From Minisyncoccia bacterium (GTDB taxonomy: Bacteria; Patescibacteriota; Minisyncoccia; Phycocordibacterales; UBA9973): 64,000 nt of DNA. The position numbers were made by a program, and so were the translations under genes. Location: contig JBAQFO010000012.1 in NCBI GenBank assembly GCA_049287305.1, positions 89,768-153,767 on the forward strand, read 5' to 3'. The notes below the pieces were generated by a model. It did no database searches and was not told the DNA's origin. It saw only the letters and a program-made list of their open reading frames with translations. Positions 1 through 45,635 of this stretch are shown here, in pieces (position 1 is the stretch's first letter; each line of letters opens with the position of its first letter).

Positions 1-42
1 TATCCTCTTATTCTTAAAATTGAAAAAATTCAAAAAGGGATT

Positions 43-390
43 TTGCCTAATATCTTAGAGGATATAAAAACAAATTTCGGTTTGGATTATTTTGAAGGCT
101 CCAAGGAAGAGTATATAAGTCAAATCAAACGCAGACTGGAAATTATAAAAGAAGCTCGTTCACTAAAGCAGGTAACTGCACATGATTTAGAGTACCGAAT
201 CAACAACACCTTAAGAATTTTGGACAAAAAAAGTTTAGGCAAAATTAATGATCCTCTTGCTCATTACCTAAAAGACGACAGGGCTAGGTCATATGTTTAT
301 CAGTTGTTTACAAAGATACAGTTGTTAAAACCTTTCAAAATAGACCCTTATCTCGTGTATGATGCAGGTCATAGAAGTAAAGTGAGGTAG
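43..390 (+). CDS. hypothetical protein; frame is open upstream to nt 1, so this may be the 3' part of a longer gene
   Basis: ORF track 43..390 with a TTG start. The same frame has no stop back to the window edge. Codon usage is AT-rich like the rest of the window, and I see no recognisable motif. Confidence 0.3.
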   Translation: MPNILEDIKTNFGLDYFEGSKEEYISQIKRRLEIIKEARSLKQVTAHDLEYRINNTLRILDKKSLGKINDPLAHYLKDDRARSYVYQLFTKIQLLKPFKIDPYLVYDAGHRSKVR

Positions 391-652
391 ACCTAGGCGG
401 GTTAGGGTCTGAGACTAGAATTTTGGTATAATTCGGAGTATGAAAACTAAGATTCGGGGGGTGATGCAATTACAAGCTTTGATGGTAAAGATTTAACTTG
501 GTTTTTTGCTGGGTTATGTTCTCTTGTTTCAATTGGATATTTTATTTTTCAATATATTAAGAACAAAAACAATCCACTTTAGTTAAGTAAAGTGGAGAAG
601 TCGGGGGTGGTGGTTAGAGGTTGCAGGGGGAAGAGAAAACAAGCAAAACAGG

Positions 653-682
653 TACGTAATGTATTACGTAATACATTACGTA
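653..682. repeat. perfect 30-bp palindrome TACGTAATGTATTAC|GTAATACATTACGTA
   Basis: Read directly from the sequence: the second 15-mer is the exact reverse complement of the first. It is followed by an A-run and then AAGTTATGCAC. Confidence 0.85.
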
Positions 683-969
683 AACAAAAAAGTTATGCAC
701 CTTGGGCATGGCGCTTCGGACGTTTAAGCGTATAGTGGTGTTGAATAGGGGGGAAGCGTGGACATTACCTGTGACAACTGCACGAATAGCAAAATCGGCG
801 ACTTGCTGGTTTGGATCAACAATCTGTGGGGATTCTCTTGCTCTCTTTGTGTGGCAAGATACGAGGAGCAGGAGCGGGAGAAGGAAATCTACCGCAGAAA
901 GTTCGAGGTAAGAGTGAGATAACACCCCGACCAGTTCAGAGAAGGAGGAAGATGAATAGTGAACCCCGT

Positions 970-1011
970 GCGGGCGCGCTCGAAGTTGAGTGCGCCCGCT
1001 TTTCTATTTTT
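970..1011 (+). terminator. intrinsic terminator: GCGGGCGCGC stem, 12-nt loop, GCGCCCGC, then a TTTTCTATTTTT tract
   Basis: A perfect 8-bp GC stem (970-979 pairing 992-999) is followed by a T-rich tract. Only the + strand has the U-run. Confidence 0.7.
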
Positions 1012-1099
1012 AAGTTATGCACTTTTAGAAAGGGCGTGGGGAATTTTTGAGCGTATACTATTGGAGAAACACAGTTCTCTTCGGGAAGGAGGAAGACAA

Positions 1100-1342
1100 G
1101 TGTTAGAGTCTGTTATTGAAGTTTCCGGCTCTTCTTGCTCCTCCTGTCATAGGAGCTTGGAGATTGGAAAGATGGAATGGATTCCCAACGTGGGAGTCAT
1201 GTGTGATGGGTGTGTGAAGCATTACTGGGAGTGGCACAAGGAGTGGGCAGAAGTTCAACGACAGAGGATGATGGAAGATGAAGAATGGTCAGCAGAAGAA
1301 GTTGAAGTTGCTTCGCTTGAAGAGATGGCACTCGTCTCTTGA
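1100..1342 (+). CDS. small GC-rich protein with CSSC...CDGC (CxxC-x22-CxxC), putative zinc ribbon; hypothetical
   Basis: GTG at 1100 is in frame with ORF 959..1342 and is preceded by the SD GGAAGGAGG 8 nt upstream. GC content and GC3 are far above the window background. There is no homology call. Confidence 0.3.
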   Translation: MLESVIEVSGSSCSSCHRSLEIGKMEWIPNVGVMCDGCVKHYWEWHKEWAEVQRQRMMEDEEWSAEEVEVASLEEMALVS

Positions 1343-1699
1343 ACCGAAGGTCAGCCTCTCCATCCACGGCAGTCATGTGTCCATGCGGCAGGAGGCCGCT
1401 CTTTACTTGAGGCCGAGTTGGTAGTCACCCTGTGTTCGCCGAAAGCAGTTCTGCGCGGCGCCCTGGCTGACACGGGGAGAATGTGCGGGGGGATAGAAGA
1501 ATGAGATTACGGTTCGACATTTATTACCATTGTAGCCTCGGCAAGCCGTTGGCGACCATGGAGAAGATACGTCGATACTGTTCCGTCATTGAATGCCCGA
1601 ACCTCGGGCAACGCAAACGAAAGAAGGTGAAGGAAAACCATCGCAGTCTCGCCCGAGAGTAAAGTCTCGCGCCCCGCGAAGCGTGTCAAGCGTGTCCGC

Positions 1700-1728
1700 C
1701 TTTATTTCTGATTGGCATGTGGTATACT
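1700..1728 (+). promoter_or_regulatory. extended -10 promoter TGgTATACT for the ileS leader
   Basis: TGGTATACT at 1720-1728; the -35 is weak. Confidence 0.35.
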
Positions 1729-1734
1729 ACTTTT

Positions 1735-1954
1735 ACAGGCGTTCGAGGGGAGATCACCCCTTCGCCCCGCGAAGCGGGGCAGGCTTCGGGAAGAATTAAG
1801 TAGAACCCGACGGGCAAGCCCGTTATAGCCGTAATGAGAAACCCCGCTCGAAGCGGGTAAAAACAAAGGTGGTACCACGAGCAAAGAAACTCGTCCTTGT
1901 TCAGCAATTCAGTCAGTCTTTTGAATTGTTGTCCGAGGACGAGTTTTTTATTTT
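1735..1954 (+). promoter_or_regulatory. T-box riboswitch-like leader with intrinsic terminator, upstream of ileS
   Basis: AAAGGTGGTACCACGAG at 1865-1881 matches the T-box consensus AGGGTGGNACCGCG at 12 of 14 positions, including the UGGU bulge that pairs with tRNA ACCA. A terminator immediately downstream has arms AAACTCGTCC (1887-1896) and GGACGAGTTT (1937-1946), an inner helix CAATTC/GAATTG and a TTTTTTATTTT tract. GATCA in an upstream hairpin would give an AUC specifier followed by A. Confidence 0.5.
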
Positions 1955-2035
1955 GACAAGAGAGGAGCATATATAAAGTTATTTATATAATATCCGAACG
2001 GTGTCAAAATATTATACCCAGTTATATTTACGAAA

Positions 2036-2296
2036 ATGGACAAAAAAGAAAAAACCATAAAGTTTCTTGGAACGCTTGGCACAACCATAGCTATACTTAT
2101 GTTCGTTTCGCTTCTTGAAATCGCCCGAGCAAACATAAGAGGCGAGAGTCATATATTCATACAGCCGATTATGGTTACAATAAATTGTTTTACTTGGTCA
2201 TTGTATGCTTATCTTAAAAAAGAAAAGTTCGTATTTTGGGCAAATTTCCCAGGAGTCCTACTTGGAATTATTACAATAATAACAGCTTTTATATAA
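2036..2296 (+). CDS. small three-helix membrane protein with SemiSWEET-like topology
   Basis: 86 aa with three hydrophobic segments and Trp and Asn at SemiSWEET-like positions (FTWSLYAY, FWANFPG), but no PQ motif. The stop lies 2 nt before the ileS ATG. Confidence 0.35.
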   Translation: MDKKEKTIKFLGTLGTTIAILMFVSLLEIARANIRGESHIFIQPIMVTINCFTWSLYAYLKKEKFVFWANFPGVLLGIITIITAFI

Positions 2297-2298
2297 AT

Positions 2299-5200
2299 AT
2301 GAGTGAAGAAACAAAAAAAATCATAGAAAAATCTGACGCAGCCTTCCGCGAAGAGAAGGTTTTGGAATTTTGGAAAGATAATAAAATTTTCAACAAGACG
2401 CTGGAAGCAAGTGCCGGCAAGAAAGAATTTATTTTTTACGACGGTCCGCCTACTGCTAACGGCATGCCGGGGATTCACCACCTGATTCCGCAATCTTTTA
2501 AGGATGCTATTCCGCGATATAAAACAATGCGCGAGTTCCATGTCCGCAGAAAGGGGGGCTGGGATACTCACGGCCTTCCCGTTGAACTCTTGGTGGAAAA
2601 AGAACTGGGATTGAAATCAAAAAAAGAAATTGAGAGTTACGGTATTGCCGCCTTCAACCAAAAATGCAAAGAAAGTGTCTGGAAGCACGTGGATGTCTGG
2701 TATAAATACCGCGACCGAGTCGGATACTGGGTGGACAAGGATAATCCATACGTTACTTACCACAACGAATTCATTGAGTCGCTGTGGAGTGTGGTGAAAA
2801 AAATAAACGAACGCGGACTACTTTATAAAGATTATAAAGTAGTGCCATGGTGTCCGAGGTGCGGGACGGCGCTGTCTTCACATGAGCTTGCCCAAGGATA
2901 TGAGGACGTAAAAGATTTATCGGTGACGGCAAAATTCAAAGTTGTCGGACAAAACAATACTTATATCCTGGCATGGACGACGACTCCATGGACGCTTCCA
3001 GGGAATGTGGCACTCGCTGTTGGAGAAAATATTGATTATGTAAAGGTGAAAGTAGGAGCCGAGCTTTATATTTTAGCCAAAGCCCGACTTTCTATAATAA
3101 CCGAATCTTACGAGATAGTGGAAGAGATAAAAGGCGGAGGGCTGATTGGCTTGGAATATGAACCGCTGTTCCCATATTTCAAAAATACGATTTCCGAAAA
3201 TGAAAAACCAAAACTGGAAAAAGCCTTCCGGGTGCATAAAGCAAACTTTGTAACCACGGAAGACGGCACGGGGGTAGTGCATACCGCCGTAATGTATGGA
3301 CAGGACGACTTTGTGCTCGGGAACGAAGTCGGCTTGCCGAAACATCATATGGTAGGGCTGGATGGAAAATTCCTTCCCGGGACTGGCATATTTGAAAGGC
3401 GCTTTGTAAAAGACGAGGAAGTTGCCGTAGATATAATCAAAGATTTGGCTGGACGAGGGCTTCTTTTTAAAAAAGAAAAATACGAACACTCGTATCCGCA
3501 TTGCTGGCGATGCAAAACTCCGCTCATATACTACGCGAGAGATTCTTGGTATATCAAAATGTCTGACCCGAAAATAAAAGCCGAACTCATCAGCCAAAAC
3601 AAAGAAATAAATTGGGAGCCGGCGCATACCCGCGACGGACGTTTCGGCGAATGGCTTCGGGAGATAAAAGATTGGGCAATATCACGTGAGCGATATTGGG
3701 GAACACCGCTTCCGGTGTGGTCTTGCGAAACTTGCAAGAAAACCGAAGTGCTCGGGAGCATAGAAGATATAAAATCTAAAGCAAAAAAATCCGGAAATAA
3801 ATATTTGGTAATGCGGCACGGCGGAACTAATGCCAACAAGAAAGGACTTGTAAGCTATAAAAATGAGGCAAGCGACCACCTGACGGAAGAAGGGAAAAGG
3901 CAAGTCACGGCAAGCGCGGAGAAACTAAGTAGCCAAAAAATAGATTTAATTGTGGCGTCTCCCTTTGTTCGCACTAAAGAAACAGCATTAATAGTTAAAG
4001 ACAAATTTGGCCTCGGCGAAGACCAGGTTGTTTTTGACTCGCGCTTGGCGGAATTTGACCCTGGGGATTTTGACGGCAAAGAATGGAAAGATTATCACAG
4101 ATATATTGCTAGCTCAGGGTCTGGATGGTTCAATCAAACAATCCCGGGCGGAGAATCCCTCAAGGATGTGGGGGAGAGGACGGCGTCCCTCTTATATGAG
4201 ATTGAAAATAAGTTCAGTGGAAAAAATATTCTCATTGTTACCCATGGCGGACCGGCATGGCTTTTGTTCGTTAATTCTGGGTTGTTTATACCAGGAGGCG
4301 AGGCTTATAGGATTCCAAACGGAGAATCTTTCGTAAAAGAATTTCAACAGCTAAGGAATGCCGAGGTTAGAGAGTTACCGTTCGCGCCGTTGCCCCATAA
4401 TGAAAAATACGAATTGGATTTGCACAAACCTTATATTGATGAAGTAAAAATGGTTTGTTCCTGCGGAGGAGAACTTATCCGCACCAAAGAAGTCATGGAC
4501 GTGTGGTTTGACTCTGGTGCAATGCCTTTTGCTCAGGACCACTATCCGTTTGAAAATAAAAAATGGGTGGAAGGGCCCGGGTTCCCTGCGGATTTTATCG
4601 CGGAGGCCATAGACCAGACGCGCGGATGGTTCTATACGCTACATGCCGTCGGAATTTTGATGGGGCGAGGCAAGGCATATAAAAACGTGATTTGCTTAGG
4701 TCATTTACTAGACGCCAAAGGAAAGAAAATGTCCAAGTCTCTCGGCAACGTAGTGAATCCGTGGGAAGTAATGGATAAATATGGAGTGGACACATTACGC
4801 CTGTGGATGTATTCCATAAACCAGCCAGGGGAGTCAAAGAATTTTGACGAGAAAACGGTGGCGCTTCTCTCTCAGCAAGTTTTCGGACTGCTTTACAATG
4901 TGCTGGCCTTTTACGAACTTTACCGAGACAAAAGCTACGAAGATAACTCCAGACCAAGCTCTAAAAATATTTTGGACAAATGGATTCTCACCCGTCTTTT
5001 TGAATTAAGGAATGATGTAACAGCCAACATGGATAGTTATAAATTGTTGGAACCTGTGCGAGGAATGAGAGATTTCATCGGAGACCTTTCTACTTGGTAT
5101 TTAAGGCGGTCCCGAGAAAGAATAAAGGAAGGCGACTCGGAAGCGAAGGCCACTTTATATTTTGTGTTGAAGAGTCTAGCCAAGCTGATGGCTCCGTTCG

Positions 5201-9786: not shown

Positions 9787-11187
9787 ATGAAAAACCAAGA
9801 AAAAAATGAAAATGATTTAATGGAAAAAATAGTTTCACTCTGCAAAAGACGCGGATTTATTTTTCAAGGTTCGGAAATATACGGCGGGATGGCTGGAATG
9901 TATGATTTTGGTCCTTATGGTGTTGAGCTTTTAAATAATATTAAATCAGCTTGGTGGAAAGAACATGTCCAGAAACGAGACAATTATTTTGGTCTTGATT
10001 CAGCTATGTTTAAAGATCCGCGAGTTTGGGATGCGTCAGGGCATACCAGCGGTTTTTCGGATCCGTTAGCAGAATGTAAAAAATGTAATACTCGTATCCG
10101 AGTCGATAAAGAATTGGAGAAAGTTGGAGTCACTGCAGATGAAAAAATGTCTGAAATTGAACTCAATACTTTATTTACTGAACACAAAACAAAAATTAAA
10201 TGTCCTAAGTGTGGGGCAAGCGATTTTACGCCAGTGCGCGCGTTTAATTTATTAGTCAAGACCAATATGGGTGATTTTACGGGCAAGAATGAAACCCCAG
10301 TATATTTACCAGGGGAAGCATGTCAGGGGATATATCTCAATTTTAAAAATGTAGTTGATACCACTCGCGCCAAAATACCTTTTGGTATTGCTCAGATAGG
10401 TAAGGCATTTCGTAACGAAATATCTCCACGTAATTTTCTTTTCCGAACTCGTGAACTCGAACAGGCTGATACTCAATATTTTGTGCGTCCACATGAAAAC
10501 AAAGAAGCATACGAAAAAATAAAACAAGATCGTTTCAGTTGGTATATAAAAATGGGAATAAAACCAGAAAATCTTCGTTTCAAACAGCACGAGAATCTAG
10601 TATTTTATGCTGCGGATGCGTGGGACATTGAATACAATTTTCCAGCAAATGGTTTTGATGAGCTTGAAGGTATCCACGACAGAACAGATTACGATCTGAC
10701 TCAGCATATGAAATTTTCTGGGACAGATTTGAATTATACTGATCCGAATACTAACGAAAAATATATTCCTTGGATTTTAGAAACTTCCGTAGGTCTTGGT
10801 CGCATGTTTCTGGCTTTTATTTCTGAAGCTTATACTGAAGAAGATTTTGATGGTGAGCTTCGCACTGTTCTTAAGCTTGCATACCGACTTGCTCCAATCA
10901 AAGCTGCTGTTTTTCCATTGTTAAAAAACAAACCTGAACTTGTGGCAAAGGCGCGTGAAGTCTATGAAATGCTCCGAGAAGATGTGCGGACTGAATGGGA
11001 TGACAATGGCAACGTCGGCAAGCGATATCGTCGTCAGGATGAAATTGGAACGCCATTTTGTATAACTATAGATTTCGAAACGATTGAACAGGATGTGGGA
11101 GTGACTGTGCGAGATCGTGATACAGGGAAACAAGAGAGAGTAAGAATTGAGGACTTGAAAGATTATATAAAAGAAAGAATAAGCTAA
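9787..11187 (+). CDS. glyQS: glycyl-tRNA synthetase (alpha2 type)
   Basis: GSEIYGGMAGMYDFGPYG plus class II motifs. Confidence 0.9.
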   Translation: MKNQEKNENDLMEKIVSLCKRRGFIFQGSEIYGGMAGMYDFGPYGVELLNNIKSAWWKEHVQKRDNYFGLDSAMFKDPRVWDASGHTSGFSDPLAECKKCNTRIRVDKELEKVGVTADEKMSEIELNTLFTEHKTKIKCPKCGASDFTPVRAFNLLVKTNMGDFTGKNETPVYLPGEACQGIYLNFKNVVDTTRAKIPFGIAQIGKAFRNEISPRNFLFRTRELEQADTQYFVRPHENKEAYEKIKQDRFSWYIKMGIKPENLRFKQHENLVFYAADAWDIEYNFPANGFDELEGIHDRTDYDLTQHMKFSGTDLNYTDPNTNEKYIPWILETSVGLGRMFLAFISEAYTEEDFDGELRTVLKLAYRLAPIKAAVFPLLKNKPELVAKAREVYEMLREDVRTEWDDNGNVGKRYRRQDEIGTPFCITIDFETIEQDVGVTVRDRDTGKQERVRIEDLKDYIKERIS

Positions 11188-26420: not shown

Positions 26421-26609
26421 CTTTTTTGTTGTATAATTAGACTATATGAATCCCGTTAGAAGCCCCCGCCCGCTTTCGCCAGAGCAAAGCGATGGCGGGT
26501 GGGGCGATCGCAATGTAAAAACAAATAAAAATATGAAGTTAAATATTGTAAGAATTAATAACTTAACATATCAGATACGCGAGATGATCGCGATCTGCTT
26601 CTAAACGGG

Positions 26610-28544
26610 ATGAATTCAATCATCAGAAAAATAATCTTGGTTTTCATTTTTATATTGCCTTTTATAATTTTCCCATATACACCATATTCAATGGTGTTTT
26701 CAAAATCTCTTTTTTTAGAGGGTGTTACTCTCGTTATTGGTGTTCTTTGGATAATGGGCAAATTATTTAAAACAGAAACAGAAACAGAAAAAATTTCTAG
26801 AAATATCACCCTCTTTGTATTTGGAGTTTATGTTTTTTCTCTTTTAATTTCTGCTCTTAGTAGTTTTGTTCCCGGACTTTCATTTTGGGGAACCTTGGAC
26901 CATGGGACCGGAGCTGTTTTTATGCTGTGTTTATTCCTTTTTTCTGTCATTACCAGTTCGGTGTTTAAAAAGATAGAAGATTGGTACACACTTTTTACAA
27001 CTTTTGTGATTTCAGGAATTATTTTCACCTCGGGAACTTTTTTATCAGAAATGGGGATGAATTTTTTTCCCACTATAACGATCAATGCTTCAGGAGGTTT
27101 TCTTGTTGGCAACTCATCTTGGGCGGGAATTTATCTTGCTTTTGTTTTTTTTATAAGCCTAGGACTTACATTTTCACCACAAAACAAAAGTCATAGAGTT
27201 ATTGGTTTTTTGGGTTTAATCTTTACATTTTTTAACCCAATTATTACTGGCTTTATAATTCCGGCCCCTGATCAGTCTTTTCGGCTCATTGGTTTAGCTC
27301 GAGCATCATTATACTCTATTTTTGCTGGTACTAGTTTTTTTGTTCTTTATTTGTTTTTTAGAAAAATAACATCTATAAAGTGGAGAAAGATATGTATAGG
27401 AAGTTTTATTACGATTTTGGTTGCAGTATCTTTGTTTGTAGTAATCAGCCCAGGTGTGTTTCGTCAGGGCATATCTGAAACAGCCGGTCCAAATAGATTG
27501 ATCTTTTGGGATATTGCAGTTTCTAGTTTCAAAGAACATCCAGTTCTGGGGTGGGGTGGTGATACTTATCAGTTTGCATATGCGAAATATTTTAACCCAA
27601 TTATTACTTCTCCAGGTTATTCTCCAGAATATTGGGCAGATCGTGCACATAGTATATATTTTGACGAACTTCACGCTGGAGGTTTTATTGGTTTTATTTT
27701 ACTTATGTTTTTGTATGGAATAATTTTATTTGGTCTTTTACGTAATGGAATAAAACAAAATGATGAAAATAATATTTTGTTTATGGCTTTGGCGGCTGGG
27801 TTAATCTCTTTTTTGATACAAGGGCTGTTGTTGTTTCAGACTATTGTTGGTTGGGTGGTTGTGTCTATAGTTATTGCTTTTGTTGCTAATTTTTGTTTTA
27901 TGGATAGAAATGTAATTGATACTAAGATTGAGAAGAATAAAAAAAGAAATAAAGACAGTGATAATACTTTTCGTAATTTGTTTTCAGTAGTTGTTATAGT
28001 GATTTTTGGATTTTTATTTTACTATGTAATAATTGTGCCTTATCGTGTTGCTAATATGTTGGCTAGATTTCCGACTGAGTCTTATAGTAAAAGGTTAGAG
28101 CTTTATAAAGAAATAGATAATGCTTATATAGGAAATACCACAGATTTAGGAAATATTTTTTTACCATATCATATTAGACTTAGGCAAATATTGAAAAAAG
28201 GACTCAAGGATGAAGAAAAAAAATTAATGATAAACGAAGCCAAAGAAATTATTAGAATTTTGGATAATGGTTTAAAAAAGCAAGATTACAAAGAGCTGAA
28301 AATTTTGATGGGACAAGCAGGATTTTACTCAGTAGTTATAGCGTTAACTGACGGACAGGAAAGACAAGCTTATTATGATCAAAGTCTGTTTTATGTGGAA
28401 AAAATGAAGCTAGCTTCTCCTCAAAGCCCGACACCAGAAATAGCCAAAGCCCTGCTAGACATTTCCCTCAAATATGGCGAAGAAGGTCTGGATCTTTTAA
28501 ATTTGGATAAAGAAAAAGCTATAAAAGAAAGTAATAATAATTAA
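26610..28544 (+). CDS. O-antigen ligase/polymerase family (Wzy_C-like) membrane protein with a soluble C-terminal extension
   Basis: More than ten TM helices and a central periplasmic loop pattern (WGGDTYQF...YWADRAHSIYFDELHAGGFIG). Confidence 0.5.
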   Translation: MNSIIRKIILVFIFILPFIIFPYTPYSMVFSKSLFLEGVTLVIGVLWIMGKLFKTETETEKISRNITLFVFGVYVFSLLISALSSFVPGLSFWGTLDHGTGAVFMLCLFLFSVITSSVFKKIEDWYTLFTTFVISGIIFTSGTFLSEMGMNFFPTITINASGGFLVGNSSWAGIYLAFVFFISLGLTFSPQNKSHRVIGFLGLIFTFFNPIITGFIIPAPDQSFRLIGLARASLYSIFAGTSFFVLYLFFRKITSIKWRKICIGSFITILVAVSLFVVISPGVFRQGISETAGPNRLIFWDIAVSSFKEHPVLGWGGDTYQFAYAKYFNPIITSPGYSPEYWADRAHSIYFDELHAGGFIGFILLMFLYGIILFGLLRNGIKQNDENNILFMALAAGLISFLIQGLLLFQTIVGWVVVSIVIAFVANFCFMDRNVIDTKIEKNKKRNKDSDNTFRNLFSVVVIVIFGFLFYYVIIVPYRVANMLARFPTESYSKRLELYKEIDNAYIGNTTDLGNIFLPYHIRLRQILKKGLKDEEKKLMINEAKEIIRILDNGLKKQDYKELKILMGQAGFYSVVIALTDGQERQAYYDQSLFYVEKMKLASPQSPTPEIAKALLDISLKYGEEGLDLLNLDKEKAIKESNNN

Positions 28545-29450: not shown

Positions 29451-29456
29451 CATGTC

Positions 29457-29734
29457 TCCCGTTAGAGATCACTTATGTTTTATTACACATATACTTTAAA
29501 AAGTAAGAAAGATGGCAAAATTTATACAGGATATACGCAAGACCTACGGAAGCGCCCGAGTGAGCATAATAAAGGTTTATCTACATATACTAAAGGACGA
29601 GGCCCATTTATTTTGATATACTACGAAGGGTGCTTATTAAAAGATAAAGCTAGGTCGAGAGAATTATATTTAAAATCAGGAATGGGCAAGCGTTATCTAA
29701 AAAATAGATTAGGCGCTTCCTACCTCTAACGGGA
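29457..29734. repeat. perfect 11-bp inverted repeats TCCCGTTAGAG (29457-29467) and CTCTAACGGGA (29724-29734) bracketing GIY-YIG copy 1
   Basis: Read from the sequence. The right repeat overlaps the GIY-YIG stop and the gmd ATG. Confidence 0.7.
29475..29729 (+). CDS. small stand-alone GIY-YIG nuclease-superfamily protein (YhbQ/UPF0213-like), copy 1
   Basis: [28 protein letters not shown]...ELYLK, with GIY-YIG-like YTGYT and a conserved Arg and Glu. About 85 aa. Paralogous to copies 2 and 3. Confidence 0.75.
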
Positions 29735-30795
29735 TGAAAGATAAAAAAAGGGCTTTAATTATAGGTATTACAGGGCAGGATGGGTCATATTTGGCTGAAT
29801 TTTTGCTAGAAAAAGGCTACGAGGTTCATGGAATGATAAGGCGTTCTTCCAGCTTCAACACCGAAAGATTGGACAAAATATATGAAGATCCGCACGTGGA
29901 CAATCGTCATCTAGTTCTTCATTATGGAGATCTGTCTGATTCCAACAGTATAAATAATATGGTTAATAAAAGTAAACCGGACGAGATTTATAACTTGGGT
30001 GCGCAGAGTCACGTAAGAGTAAGTTTTGATATTCCCGAATATACTGCTGACATAGATGCGCTTGGAACATTACGATTGCTAGATGTTATAAAGGAACAAA
30101 GTTATCCAATAAAATTTTATCAAGCGGGGTCAAGTGAAATGTTTGGGAAAGTTTTAGAGACTCCGCAAAAAGAAACAACGCCATTCAACCCCCAGAGTCC
30201 CTATGGTTGTGCCAAAGTATTTTCGCATATGATTTGCGTGAATTATCGCGAGGCTTATAATATGTTTATTTGCAATGGTATACTTTTTAACCATGAATCT
30301 CCGAGGAGGGGGCGGACTTTTGTTACTAAAAAGGTGGTGGAAGGTCTCGCAGATATAAAACTAGGGAAAAAAGAAAAAATATTTTTGGGAAACCTAGATG
30401 CCAAACGGGATTGGGGTTATGCCAAGGACTATGTGCGGGCTATGTGGCTGATGCTCCAGCAAGATACTCCTGATGATTACGTGATAGCAACAGGAGAGAC
30501 ACATTCCGTCCGTGAGTTCGTGGAATATGCGGCATCTTTGGTTGGTTATAAAATTGTTTGGCAAGGGTCAGGATTGGAAGAAGTTGGTATAGATGAAAAA
30601 TCAGGAAAAGTCCTCATCAGTATAGATGAAAATTATTACAGGCCGTCGGAAGTAGATGTATTGTTGGGAGACAATACAAAAGCAAAAGAGAAATTAAACT
30701 GGGATACCAATGTAAAATTTAAAGACCTTATAGATTTAATGGTAAAAGAAGAATTTGAAGAGCGGGGACTTCCCAGTAAAGATTATATAAAATAA
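29734..30795 (+). CDS. gmd: GDP-mannose 4,6-dehydratase
   Basis: [27 protein letters not shown] and Gmd-specific motifs. Confidence 0.92.
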
Positions 30796-31731: not shown

Positions 31732-32577
31732 ATGATAACTGTAAGATTAAAAGGGGGTTTGGGTAATCAGATGTTTCAATATGCCTTAGGGCGTGCTTTG
31801 TCTATTAAAAATAACACAACTCTCGGACTAGATATCGGTTTTTATGATATGAATCTAAACCCTAAGAGGCAATACGACCTGGAGGTGTTTAATATTGCCG
31901 GAAAAGTTCTGGAGCAGAAAGAAATTCCTTTTTTATACAGATTTTGTCATAAAAGCAAAATTTTGGATAAAATTACAAGATATGGATTTAAAGAAAAATC
32001 TTTTGATTTTGATCCGCAGATTTTTTGTCGTGGATCAAGCTTATACATAGATGGATACTGGCAAAGTCCGAAATACTTTGAAGATTTTGAGGATGAAATT
32101 AGAAAAGATTTTACTTTAAAAAACCCACCAGTTCAAAACATAGAAGACCTTGCGAAAGAAATAGAGCATATAAATTCGGTGTGCGTTCATGTGCGCAGAG
32201 GGGATTATGTAGGAAATAAAAATCATGAAATTGTAGATAATGAATATTATATAAAAGGCATTGAGTATATAAAAAATCATGCGTCAGTAGATAAAATATA
32301 TGTTTTTTCTGATGACATAGAATGGTGTAAAAATAGTTTAAAATTTGAATTTTCTACGGTATTTGTGGATAGCGTATACGCAGGAGAAAAAGGAGAAGGG
32401 CATATGTTTTTAATGAGTAAGTGTAAAAATTTTATAATTGCGAACAGCTCCTTTTCTTGGTGGGCTGCTTGGCTTTCTAACAATAAAGAGAAAATTGTAA
32501 TTTGTCCCAAACAATGGTTTCCTGATAAATCTATATACACAAACGATTTAATACCAAAAGAGTGGGTAAGAATATGA
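31732..32577 (+). CDS. alpha-1,2-fucosyltransferase (GT11 family)
   Basis: GT11 motifs GGLGNQMFQYA, HVRRGDY and ANSSFSWWAAW. Confidence 0.8.
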   Translation: MITVRLKGGLGNQMFQYALGRALSIKNNTTLGLDIGFYDMNLNPKRQYDLEVFNIAGKVLEQKEIPFLYRFCHKSKILDKITRYGFKEKSFDFDPQIFCRGSSLYIDGYWQSPKYFEDFEDEIRKDFTLKNPPVQNIEDLAKEIEHINSVCVHVRRGDYVGNKNHEIVDNEYYIKGIEYIKNHASVDKIYVFSDDIEWCKNSLKFEFSTVFVDSVYAGEKGEGHMFLMSKCKNFIIANSSFSWWAAWLSNNKEKIVICPKQWFPDKSIYTNDLIPKEWVRI

Positions 32578-32604
32578 ATCCCGTAGTAGATTTTTAATTA
32601 GATT

Positions 32605-32877
32605 ATGTTCTACACATATATATTACAAAGTCAGAAAAATAAAGAACTATATATTGGTTATACTTCAGATTTAAAAAGAAGAGTCGAAGAACATAATCAA
32701 GGGTTAAATTTTTCTACAAAAAGATATATTCCATGGAATATCATATACTACGAAGCGTGTATAGAAGAAAGTGATGCTAAGCGCAGAGAGAAATATCTGA
32801 AAACAACACAAGGGAATAGATTAATAAAGAGAAGGATAAAAGATTATATTTATAAGTTGAAAAATTTAACAAATTAA
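32605..32877 (+). CDS. small stand-alone GIY-YIG nuclease-superfamily protein, copy 2
   Basis: MFYTYILQSQKNKELYIGYTSDLKRRVEEHN. It is bracketed by the imperfect inverted repeat TCCCGTAGTAG (32579-32589) and CACTACAGG (32883-32891). Confidence 0.75.
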   Translation: MFYTYILQSQKNKELYIGYTSDLKRRVEEHNQGLNFSTKRYIPWNIIYYEACIEESDAKRREKYLKTTQGNRLIKRRIKDYIYKLKNLTN

Positions 32878-32891
32878 AAATTCACTACAGG

Positions 32892-34232
32892 ATGATAAAT
32901 ATAATCAATAAAATTAAAAGTTTAACACTCGAGCAGATAAACAAAAACCTAGTTTTTTTGGCTATTATCGCCTTAATTTACCGAAAAGGTAATTTTTACA
33001 ATACTTTTGTTCCAAAGCCATTTGAAATAATTCTCGTACTGATTATCATTCTTACATTTGTGCATTTACTAATCAATAAGAAATTTAAAGCTTTTTTCTC
33101 TTCAATTGATAAAAAAATTTGGATAGCATTGTCGTGCCTCCTGGTATCTGTTTTTGTGGGCTGGGCTGTAGCTGTATTTTTTAAGAATGTGCCGATAAAT
33201 TTCAATGTTATTTTAGAGTTTGGGAATTTTGTAATTTCTTTGGTGATATTTGTATTGGTTTTATTTTACACAAAAAATGATAAAATATTTGCCCAAAAAT
33301 ATTTATACGCATTACTTTTGCCGGCTGTATATACGATTTTTGTGTTATTCACCGAAGGGGCTAATTACTTTAACTTGGAAAACAACGGCACATTTCTTGG
33401 GCTTACAATCAATCCGAATATAATTTCTAAAATATTGCTTATTCCTGCGTTATTCTTTATAACGCATTCTTTGTTTAAACTTCAAAACAGGTGGCTGAGA
33501 ATTGGATATATTGCTATTTCTTGCGCTATGGTTGCTTTATTGTTTTGGGTTGCATCCAGGGGAGGATTGGTTTCTTTGGCGATTTCAATGATGTTCGTGT
33601 GGCTTGTTTTTTCTTTACATCATTTTAATTGGAAAAAACTATTTTATAGTGGTGGACTTCTCTTCATTATATTTTTAATTGGATTTCTTATAACTCCGCA
33701 AACTGGGAAGCAGAGGGTTATCCTTCGAGCTTTATACCCAAGTGGATCTGATTATTCTAGTTATGTCGAAGTTATAAATAAACCGGTTGACGATATTGTA
33801 TCTAAATTTATTACTGATAAGTCAGATAAGCATGTTTTTATTTATGCTAATGGAGAAAATCGTTTTAAAATTTGGCCATTTTATTTAAAGTACATATTGA
33901 TGAACCCACTTGGTATAGGGCCAAATACTCACTTGAGCTTTAGCTTAAAGGATAATGTTGGAGAATATATAAATTCAGGTCCACATAATACTTTCCTACA
34001 AATTTGGCTATGGGGAGGACTGCTAGGGATACTGAGTTTCTTATATATCTTTATCAATGCATTTAAAAACCTAAGATTACAATTAAAATCAGAATTTAAT
34101 CCTACTGCCTTGGCATTGCTTGGAGTTCTATTTGCTGTTAGTATTTCTGTCATGTTTGATGACAGCTTATCATTTTTTTGGTTTTTTATAATTTTAGCTT
34201 TGACATTGAGATATGAAAATACCAGTAGTTAG
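32892..34232 (+). CDS. O-antigen polymerase/ligase-like (Wzy family) membrane protein
   Basis: About 11 TM helices; the WVASRGGLVSLAISMMF pattern is typical of the Wzy_C region. Confidence 0.45.
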   Translation: MINIINKIKSLTLEQINKNLVFLAIIALIYRKGNFYNTFVPKPFEIILVLIIILTFVHLLINKKFKAFFSSIDKKIWIALSCLLVSVFVGWAVAVFFKNVPINFNVILEFGNFVISLVIFVLVLFYTKNDKIFAQKYLYALLLPAVYTIFVLFTEGANYFNLENNGTFLGLTINPNIISKILLIPALFFITHSLFKLQNRWLRIGYIAISCAMVALLFWVASRGGLVSLAISMMFVWLVFSLHHFNWKKLFYSGGLLFIIFLIGFLITPQTGKQRVILRALYPSGSDYSSYVEVINKPVDDIVSKFITDKSDKHVFIYANGENRFKIWPFYLKYILMNPLGIGPNTHLSFSLKDNVGEYINSGPHNTFLQIWLWGGLLGILSFLYIFINAFKNLRLQLKSEFNPTALALLGVLFAVSISVMFDDSLSFFWFFIILALTLRYENTSS

Positions 34233-44355: not shown

Positions 44356-45360
44356 TTACTTTTCGTGTTTATTGCAATCTAAGTATTTTTTTGAAATGAT
44401 TTTCTGCCACCAAGGCTTGTTTTCTTCATACCATTTAATGGTCTTTTGTATTCCTTCTTCAAAAGATACAGAAGGGCTCCATCCTAATTCTCGGGTAATT
44501 TTTGAATGATCCATGGCATAACGCATATCGTGCCCCCTACGATCTTCTACGAAAGTTTGTAAACTTTTCGGTTTATTTAGCAGGTTCAATATGGTATCAG
44601 TAATTTCAAGTCCATTTTTCTCTGAATCTCCCCCGATGCAATACGTCTCTCCTATTTTGCCTTTGTGGATTATTAAATCAAGAGCTTCACAATGATCTAT
44701 GACATACAAATAGTCTCGCACAGCTTTACCTTTACCATAAACAGGCAAAGGTTTGTTTTCAAAAGCATTAGTTATAAAAAGTGGGATTATTTTTTCCGGA
44801 AACTGGAACGGGCCATAGTTATTTGTACAGTTTGAAATTGTGGCAGGGAAATTGTATGTTTCAATGAAAGCCCTGACTAGGTGATCTGAGCCAGCCTTTG
44901 ATGCGGAGTAAGGGGACCTAGGAGAATACGGAGTATTCTCCTTAAATTTTTCTCCCGGTTTGTCGAGCGACAAGGTGCCGAAAACTTCGTCGGTGGATAC
45001 GTGGTGAAATCTTTTTAAATTAAACTTTCTTGCAGTTTCTAACAACACCAGTGTGCCTTTGACATTGGTTTCGACAAAATCTTCTGGGTTCTCAATTGAC
45101 CTATCCACGTGGGACTCGGCGGCAAAATGAACCACCAAATCACATCCCGTCATTGCTTGCATAACTATTTTTCTATCGCAAATGTCGCCGTGAATAAATG
45201 TATAATTTGGGTTATTCTCTATGCTTTTTAAATTGTCTAAATTTCCAGCATAGGTTAGTTTGTCTAGGTTTACTACCTCGTAGGTAGGGTATTTATTCAT
45301 CATATAGATGATAAAGTTTGAACCTATGAATCCAGCTCCACCCGTGACTAGAATTTTCAT
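44356..45360 (-). CDS. rfbB: dTDP-glucose 4,6-dehydratase
   Basis: MKILVTGGAGFIGSNF and YSASK. The start ATG at 45358-45360 overlaps the stop of GIY-YIG copy 3. The longer track ORF to 45465 is that upstream gene read in another frame. Confidence 0.9.
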   Translation of the reverse strand: MKILVTGGAGFIGSNFIIYMMNKYPTYEVVNLDKLTYAGNLDNLKSIENNPNYTFIHGDICDRKIVMQAMTGCDLVVHFAAESHVDRSIENPEDFVETNVKGTLVLLETARKFNLKRFHHVSTDEVFGTLSLDKPGEKFKENTPYSPRSPYSASKAGSDHLVRAFIETYNFPATISNCTNNYGPFQFPEKIIPLFITNAFENKPLPVYGKGKAVRDYLYVIDHCEALDLIIHKGKIGETYCIGGDSEKNGLEITDTILNLLNKPKSLQTFVEDRRGHDMRYAMDHSKITRELGWSPSVSFEEGIQKTIKWYEENKPWWQKIISKKYLDCNKHEK

Positions 45361-45629
45361 CACGTATGAAATAGGAATCGTTTTAAACGAGAATTTAAAT
45401 ATCTTCTCCCCATTCCTGTTTTTAAATATAATTCTCTCGACCGAGCATCGTCTGCGTTTAGACATGCCTCATAGTACATAATCTTATATGGTCCACGTCC
45501 TTTTGTATATGTTGACTTACCTTCATTGTGCTGTTTAAAACGCTTCCGTAATTCACTCGTATATCCAATATACCACTTATTATTCTTTTGACTTTGTAAA
45601 ACGTAAGTATAGAACATATTAGATTTCAT
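45360..45629 (-). CDS. small stand-alone GIY-YIG nuclease-superfamily protein, copy 3 (probable start at MFYTY, 45617)
   Basis: MFYTYVLQSQKNNKWYIGYTSELRKRFKQHN; STYTKGRGP and ARSRELYLK are shared with copy 1. The direct repeat CGTGACTA occurs at 45343-45350 and 45631-45638. Confidence 0.75.
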   Translation of the reverse strand: MKSNMFYTYVLQSQKNNKWYIGYTSELRKRFKQHNEGKSTYTKGRGPYKIMYYEACLNADDARSRELYLKTGMGRRYLNSRLKRFLFHT

Positions 45630-45635
45630 ACGTGA

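Follow-up and report, generated by a model that had tools for sequence, protein, structure and literature searches.

A short MITE-like element at the start codon of a glycan-cluster gene, and its GIY-YIG-carrying relatives in Candidate Phyla Radiation genomes

The Correia elements of Neisseria (Correia repeat-enclosed elements, CREE) are non-autonomous insertions of ~100-160 nucleotides (nt) that end in inverted repeats, are bordered by a short duplication of the target, occur in multiple copies near genes and are co-transcribed as a stem-loop. The element described here, E1, resembles them in these respects. It lies at 26451..26609 (+ strand) of a 64,000-nt stretch from a Minisyncoccia bacterium (assembly GCA_049287305.1, contig JBAQFO010000012.1, positions 89,768 to 153,767), called the window throughout, and is a complete 159-nt unit of the MITE (miniature inverted-repeat transposable element) kind, without a nuclease gene. 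Correia elements duplicate TA, whereas the target of the E1 family is a start codon, (A)TGnn, and an ATG is rebuilt. We know of no autonomous partner of the Correia elements; the E1 family has a cognate long form, which carries a gene for a small GIY-YIG nuclease.

Repetitive extragenic palindromes (REP), REP doublets forming hairpins (REPIN) and REP-associated tyrosine transposases (RAYT) likewise combine short palindromic repeats with a single small repeat-flanked gene, which is thought to move the repeats. RAYTs are HUH/Y1 (IS200-like) enzymes and REPs lack a target duplication, whereas here the repeat-flanked gene encodes a GIY-YIG protein, not a Y1 enzyme, and a duplication is present. 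The seg and mob genes of T4-like phages and I-TevI share with the E1 family a GIY-YIG domain and the form of a small selfish gene between host genes, often overlapping start and stop codons, and, as at the E1 site, the same site is occupied in diverged alleles. Their enzymes have 200-250 amino acids (aa) with a DNA-binding domain, and they sit at one locus without inverted-repeat ends or duplication. In the E1 family, by contrast, the protein is a catalytic domain of 84-94 aa only, and ends and repeat are present at many loci, before many unrelated host genes. Penelope-like retroelements of eukaryotes are also mobile with a GIY-YIG endonuclease that cuts the target, but they encode a reverse transcriptase, which is absent from these elements of 0.16-0.3 kb. 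Among open-access papers and bioRxiv preprints, no description was found of GIY-YIG inverted-repeat elements, of MITEs in the Candidate Phyla Radiation (CPR), or of start-codon-targeting insertions of this kind.

The starting point was a 17-mer, ATGAATCCCGTTAGAAG, at 26446-26462, which a preliminary description had placed one base off (26447-26463) and had taken for an orphan copy of the flanks of the window's GIY-YIG cassettes. The motif is indeed the same sequence as those flanks. The 10-mer TCCCGTTAGA occurs within it as described, at 26451-26460 (+) and not at 26453-26462, and has further exact copies at 29457-29466 (+) and 29725-29734 (-); the 11-mer ATGAATCCCGT occurs a second time at 32574-32584. 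The three exact copies of TCCCGTTAGA compare with 0.12 expected in the window and were reached in 1 of 100 shuffles, and the degenerate form RTGAAYCCCGT gave three matches against 0.11 expected, a number reached in none of 100 shuffles. The enrichment check proposed in the preliminary description, run on the window, came out above chance by expected counts and by shuffles, and the repeat is therefore real. The view that the copy lacks a cassette was wrong, as the matching right arm, CTTCTAAACGGG, is present at 26598-26609 with another ATGAA after it (26610-26614), which makes the site a complete 159-nt element with inverted repeats. The full right partner, GCTTCTAAACGGG-ATGAA (26597-26614), stands 135 nt downstream of the motif and is the reverse complement of the left arm plus one extra A. 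The flagged motif is the duplicated target ATGAA together with the left terminal inverted repeat of E1, and the site is an occupied one, holding a short, nuclease-less member of the GIY-YIG element family.

All parts of E1 and its host gene are on the + strand. The host -10 box TATAAT (26432..26437), read from the sequence, lies outside the element and is followed by the left target-site duplication ATGAA (26446..26450), which consists of the original start codon plus 2 nt and is identical to 26610-26614. The left terminal inverted repeat TCCCGTTAGAAGCC (26451..26464), the core of the flagged motif, pairs with 26597-26610, so that the first T of E1 pairs with the A of the right ATGAA (26610). 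Nested inside E1 is a GC-rich hairpin of 39 nt (26465..26503), specific to the E1 copy; the hairpin noted earlier after the motif is real and spans 26463-26504. A mini open reading frame (ORF) of 23 codons, MKLNIVRINNLTYQIREMIAICF, runs from 26533 to 26604 and ends 5 nt ahead of the host ATG, with a TAA (26602-26604) that falls within the right arm. Sequence and pairing assign 26586..26609 to the inner stem of the right side (GATCGCG), a bulge, and then GCTTCTAAACGGG as right terminal inverted repeat. The right copy of ATGAA (26610..26614) provides the working start codon of the host gene (26610..28544), which encodes a Wzy_C/O-antigen-ligase-like membrane protein of 644 aa (Pfam PF04932, with synteny to orthologues) and is the first gene of a low-GC glycan cluster. 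The E1 interval forms one closed fold (-65.8 kcal/mol, z = -7.7). The frame from the left ATG (26446) has 52 codons and is open through E1 to the TAA at 26602-26604; the 39-nt hairpin insert equals 13 codons and leaves it open, and the corresponding frame is likewise open in the E1 homologues of loci L008 and L206. Neither the 23-codon nor the 52-codon ORF had a Pfam match.

Comparison with related strains, suggested in the preliminary description, was the decisive test. Eight orthologous loci were compared, each with the Wzy-like gene followed by an epimerase gene and, in most, preceded by a PG-binding protein gene. The site is empty in six relatives (L204, L205, L208, L209, L210, L211), in which TATAAT is followed after N7-11 by ATGAA, ATGAC or ATGAG with no arm. 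These empty orthologous sites mark E1 as an insertion. In two near-identical contigs from a further relative (L206/L207), an E1-type element stands at exactly the place of E1. The Wzy-like protein is 78% identical to that of the window in L204 and 65% in L206/L207. With the 39-nt hairpin set aside, the L206 element is identical to E1 at 118 of 120 positions (98%), and the hairpin is a clean insertion relative to it; the flanks (upstream spacer and first 600 nt of the Wzy-like gene) are 79% identical. Either the insertion took place after these lineages had diverged, or it has been kept unusually constant. The E2 site, described below, is also empty in the closest relative, L204.

Other sites tell the same. 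A pair with host proteins 98% identical gives the exact element boundaries: the empty sequence (L045) reads ...ACAAATGAGCCAAAG, and the filled one (L047) reads ...ACAAATCAG[TCCCG...CGAG]ATGAGCCAAAG. The left flank in L047 is ATCAG. One start codon was found in three states, namely with a GIY-YIG element (L038, L041, L023), with an E1-type element (L046, L051) and empty (L004, L005, L034, L044).

E1 shows the sequence-level features of a MITE: terminal inverted repeats, a target duplication, a small size without a transposase gene, and multiple polymorphic copies. With the inferences on the GIY-YIG protein and on translation set out below included, we consider it likely that E1 belongs, as a non-autonomous, MITE-like element, to a family of small mobile elements widespread in CPR/Patescibacteria, and this is our best joint explanation.

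The window holds three elements of the long form, each of 275-313 nt, each with only one Slx1-like GIY-YIG gene (84-90 aa), and each abutting the next ATG. E2 (29452..29736, +; element 29457-29733) has arms TCCCGTTAGAG / CTCTAACGGG and a decayed left repeat, ATGTC; its ORF of 84 aa (29475-29729, +) ends with TAA within the right arm, 4 nt before the ATG of gmd (29734). E3 (32574..32894, +; element 32579-32891) has diverged 24-nt arms, ATCCCGTAGTAGATTTTTAATTAG and its complement, and an ORF of 90 aa (32605-32877, +); its left ATGAA overlaps the TGA stop of the upstream glycosyltransferase gene, and the next ATG (32892) belongs to a second Wzy-like gene. E4 (45358..45635, - strand; element 45635-45361), absent from the preliminary description, was found by a generic scan for arms ending at a start codon. 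It begins directly after the rmlC stop codon, has diverged arms TCACGTATGAAAT / ATTTCATACGTGA, and carries an ORF of 89 aa (45629-45360, -) with a Pfam GIY-YIG match at 3.7e-15, the TGA of which overlaps the ATG (45360-45358) of an rmlB-like dehydratase gene. E1 to E4 all lie within the glycan cluster (window 26000-50000, 30-38% GC vs. 41-47% in the flanks); in the remaining ~40 kb no element of this kind was seen.

The GIY-YIG proteins of the window matched Pfam PF01541 at E = 2e-15 to 4e-18, and the signature residues were invariant across 12 homologues. Matches to the structures 1zg2 (E = 2.9e-8) and 1ywl (1.8e-4) were obtained, both of which are bacterial Slx1-family structures (PMC1564403). 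By its sequence, the encoded protein is assigned to the bacterial Slx1-like/UPF0213 GIY-YIG group. It is of the same family as PDB 1zg2, 1ywl and the E. coli YhbQ type and, like them, a minimal stand-alone GIY-YIG domain. Here, however, the gene lies within an inverted-repeat unit, is flanked by a duplication and is polymorphic among genomes, whereas the literature describes a vertically inherited repair nuclease. The group I intron endonuclease model TIGR01453 scored 20-22 bits vs. a cut-off of 56, with only the first ~75 of 215 profile positions matching, and the single-domain proteins of 84-90 aa have no linked DNA-binding domain of the I-TevI/Seg type.

A genome scan with the E2 protein gave 80 loci with homologues 62-94% identical. 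In nearly all of them, ATGnn-TCCCGTTAGAGAT marks the left side and ATCTCTAACGGG-ATGnn the right. The GIY-YIG frame terminates within the right arm or with a stop codon that overlaps the ATG of the host gene. The family ends are terminal inverted repeats of 13-24 bp, (T/C)CCCGTTAGAr ... yTCTAACGGG(A/G), and two forms share them, one of ~276 nt with only an 84-94 aa Slx1-like (UPF0213) GIY-YIG gene and a short one of 45-180 nt with variable interiors. Elements stand immediately upstream of a gene, with ATG or GTG rebuilt at the right junction; the downstream host genes, judged by eye from their first residues, include RuvC, MurG, TrmD, LeuS, TopA and RpiB among many. In 1.24 Mb, 123 arm pairs were found, of which ~75 were GIY-YIG-sized and ~45 short (30-181 nt). 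An ATG directly follows the right end in 58/74 long and 25/44 short elements, and a perfect flanking repeat of 5 nt borders 28/74 of the long and 21/44 of the short ones (offset control: 0). DNA identity between elements of different genomes reaches 93%. Within the units examined, no protein gene other than GIY-YIG was seen. Larger versions bounded by such ends and a matching repeat, for instance with a transposase inside, were looked for and not found: the 11 candidates, the ORFs of which were not scanned, were spans between separate neighbouring or tandem elements.

Copies of the E1 type were collected from metagenomes by an exact scan for the right end, which gave at least 120 matches; those listed yielded 106 unique copies, to which the counts for E1-type copies refer. 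The right end of this set is fixed by the search pattern, and the orientation of short symmetric elements was assigned from their flanks. The copies are mostly 112-121 nt long with a nearly invariant left end, TCCCGTTAGAAGCCGCGATCGC, and a variable interior, and the ATGnn repeat is perfect in 61/104 copies vs. 1/104 in the control. Without its hairpin, E1 is 84% identical to L008:5103-5221 and 81% to L051:11342-11462, both before unrelated genes. The same exact scan of viral contigs for the E1-type right end gave no match.

Pairing of the ends is maintained across the family. The terminal 13-bp stem is 98% paired in 80 members, with compensatory changes at positions 1 and 11-13. For the outermost pair, the first element base and the base after CGGG were T/A in 95 cases, C/G in 18, G/C in 1 and other combinations in 4. 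The rebuilt start codon's first base (A, or G where the codon becomes GTG) therefore behaves like a piece of the element, and if this terminal A/G is counted as such the duplication may be of 4 nt (TGnn) instead of 5 nt (ATGnn). The consensus structure of 23 E1-type copies comprised only a terminal stem of 13 + 7 bp, and the ~70-nt interior had no common sequence or structure.

Several arrangements were seen alongside the regular ones. In tandem arrays, a GIY-YIG right end is followed by ATGAA or GTGAA and then by a second left end (L033 ~10255-10300; L053 5262-5661; L054 7-406; L083 9984-10382), which belongs to a short element or, in L033, is apparently a truncated solo end. In copies without a left ATG, the left flank is often yTGk (CTGG, CTGT, TTGG, GTGG), for example in L036, L023, L038, L041, L037, L027, L017, L026:6410 and L056:7141, and once an insertion has occurred it is apparently the upstream start codon that tends to be lost. 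In two E1-type copies (L108, L120), GC hairpins of other sequence stand at the same point as that of E1, just inside the left terminal repeat, which makes three independent copies with E1. No other copy of the 39-nt E1 hairpin was found in ~2 Mb of fetched sequence, and a separate repeat family of GC hairpins was rejected on this ground.

The family may be mobilised as follows. The GIY-YIG nuclease of the long form would act in trans on long and short forms alike, cleaving by staggered cuts at (A)TGnn. It might recognise the hairpin or cruciform formed by the element ends, Slx1-type enzymes being structure-specific, and such recognition would explain why complementarity is conserved instead of a fixed sequence. 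The eukaryotic relatives of the Slx1-like group cleave branched DNA (PMC1564403). Insertions would persist only where the host gene remains expressed, and expression could be helped in several ways: the original translation-start context would remain attached to the left ATG, the ends could pair in the mRNA and loop out the insert, and ribosomes could re-initiate on the host ATG after translating an internal ORF (GIY-YIG, or the 23- or 52-codon ORF of E1) that stops 4-5 nt before it or overlaps it as ATGA or TGATG.

At the E1 site, a TTGTATAAT box stands 7-11 nt before the Wzy-like ATG in the window (26430-26448) and in the orthologues (L204, L205, L208-L211, ~1480-1503). With the -10 box so close to the ATG, the Wzy-like mRNA is predicted from the sequence to be probably leaderless or nearly so. 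After insertion, its 5'-terminal AUG would be the left copy, from which the 52-codon frame would lead to the stop in the arm, an arrangement in keeping with termination there and re-initiation at the Wzy-like gene. A leaderless promoter as the general target was not supported, as a -10 box lies 4-9 nt upstream in only 13/67 E1-type and 9/32 long copies with a left ATG; it does apply at the site of E1 itself. Family-wide, a -10-like box was seen at ~1/5 of insertion sites, and Shine-Dalgarno-like sequences were rare. A 23-codon ORF ending at the arm TAA was found in 22/106 E1-type copies, and an ATG-started ORF of at least 18 codons in 56/106. A conserved peptide, MNPVR, read from the left ATG was rejected, as the spacing between ATG and arm varies (ATGn, ATGnn, ATGnnn) and the frame is not kept.

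A number of points weigh against this reading of E1 as part of a nuclease-driven mobile family. The window comes from a metagenome-assembled genome of Minisyncoccia (CPR), and all sequences compared with it are metagenome assemblies. In the literature, the Slx1-like GIY-YIG proteins of bacteria figure as repair enzymes that are inherited vertically (PMC1564403). The role of the GIY-YIG protein as mobilising nuclease is a proposal from sequence, and a hydrolytic nuclease of 84 aa cannot by itself account for strand joining. About one third of copies have no recognisable left repeat. Only ~8/21 short genome copies keep the relay frame open all the way between left ATG and arm stop, a count that does not support a universal relay ORF. 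The 23-codon mini-ORF is confined to one subgroup of copies, and its ratio of synonymous to non-synonymous changes (0.23 vs. 0.16 and 0.12 in the other frames) is a weak signal that includes one mis-registered row. Start-codon specificity could also come from selection alone, by loss of insertions at other ATGs, and not from the enzyme.

Other accounts of E1 were weighed against the same data. The suggestion of the preliminary description, that an empty target or the footprint of an excised GIY-YIG cassette is seen here, draws on the 10-11 nt shared with the cassette flanks, and its chance is now negligible: both arms, both repeat copies and an interior of ~130 nt are still there, and true empty orthologous sites read TATAAT-N7-11-ATGAAyTCAAT, with a single ATG and no arm sequence. 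The preliminary description had also offered a regulatory motif or RNA, and E1 could in principle be a cis-regulatory leader RNA dedicated to the glycan operon (riboswitch, attenuator or antitermination element) that merely shares the family stem. Its position, with a promoter-like -10 box on one side and the cluster's first gene on the other, would suit such an RNA, as would a fold far better than that of shuffled sequence (z = -7.7). Yet six orthologous operons do without E1, copies 81-84% identical precede unrelated genes, and conservation of the terminal stem alone in the 23 E1-type copies argues against a ligand-binding or otherwise elaborate RNA. The whole window gave no Rfam match at gathering score, and nothing credible appeared around E1 at E-values up to 10. 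We regard a dedicated leader as very improbable.

A stronger competitor, still unlikely in our judgement, accepts the same inverted-repeat insertions and gives them another engine. The GIY-YIG gene would be a passenger or a homing-type endonuclease, and spread would occur by break repair or recombination between alleles, or through an unlinked transposase. The 98%-identical element at the same site in Wzy lineages that are 79% identical does resemble homing; GIY-YIG enzymes are classic homing endonucleases, elements in different genomes are as much as 93% identical in their DNA, and ~1/3 of copies lack a matching repeat. However, the many unrelated downstream genes provide no shared flanks for homologous repair, and the repeat is derived from the target and varies by site (ATGAA, ATGGA, ATGAG and ATGCG among others), a hallmark of staggered cutting. 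The protein also lacks a DNA-binding domain and stays at 20-22 bits against the cut-off of 56 of the group I intron endonuclease model, and no other gene was found between matching ends, the ORFs of the candidate spans not having been scanned. Homing-type spread without transposition is possible for the long forms; site-specific repeats and the many unrelated sites favour transposition.

The mobile-family reading can be put more boldly, in a version toward which we are tentative and lean slightly against. The ~276-nt units would then be smaller than any other known autonomous DNA transposon and would form a new class, with an 84-aa Slx1-like GIY-YIG protein as sole enzyme that recognises the hairpin or cruciform of its own ends and inserts at (A)TGnn, and E1 and more than 100 relatives would be their MITEs. 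The rebuilt start codon would take its first base from the element, which would hand ribosomes to the host gene and so colonise the start codons of essential genes in the streamlined genomes of CPR bacteria.

CPR genomes abound in small stand-alone GIY-YIG genes, which are routinely annotated as a repair nuclease or 'excinuclease'; if the mobile-family reading is true, at least part of them would be the cargo or engine of a mobile element. It would also account for a class of highly structured 'intergenic' repeats in these genomes and provide a clear natural case of a start-codon-targeting insertion that repairs its own damage, with the ATG rebuilt and a stop codon adjacent. It would bear on translation initiation in organisms that make little use of Shine-Dalgarno sequences. 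The four elements in one low-GC glycan cluster may influence the expression or exchange of surface-glycan genes. The same reading would be a warning for gene callers. In L206 (L206/L207 1300-1500), owing to the element, the Wzy-like gene was called from an ATG 80 nt downstream of its proper start, giving 615 aa, and some GIY-YIG proteins were called with 92-94 aa when the duplicated host ATG was in frame (P0009, P0071, P0085, P0101).

Some contigs with family members are labelled outside CPR (L053, Woesearchaeota archaeon; L076, Scalinduaceae; L077, Omnitrophota). L053 and L054, the latter labelled Saccharibacteria, have the same sequence around a GIY-YIG element and an adjacent short element despite their different domain labels, by either a binning error or horizontal transfer. 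An integron cassette was also considered, with attC defined as RYYYAAC and GTTRRRY 50-140 nt apart after an ORF. It was rejected: GTTAGAG and CTCTAAC resemble core sites but lie on opposite sides of the ORF, and the right core-like site abuts the next ATG, past which there is no attC (no search for an integrase was made). The inner stem of E1-type ends (e.g. 26504-26511, 26586-26595) contains GCGATCGC, which we take to be the octamer of HIP1, the highly iterated palindrome of cyanobacteria; the likeness is probably a coincidence.

A second site, at 958-979, had been described as a related solo copy next to another GC hairpin, and it probably does not belong to the E1 family. GTGAACCCCGT (959-969) has the flanking repeat and only 6 nt of the arm in common with E1, the TAGA part is missing, and the partner-arm motif ACGGGGT does not occur in window positions 1-3000. 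It directly abuts a terminator-like hairpin (970-999; 13-bp GC stem, T-run). One stray match is unsurprising for RTGAAYCCCGT at 0.11 expected per window. The site is probably a chance match next to a terminator, although it may be a decayed left end. A Cys-rich ORF of 54 aa (758-922) lies upstream of GTGAACCCCGT, and a similar small Cys-rich ORF begins at ~1101, downstream of the 959-999 site.

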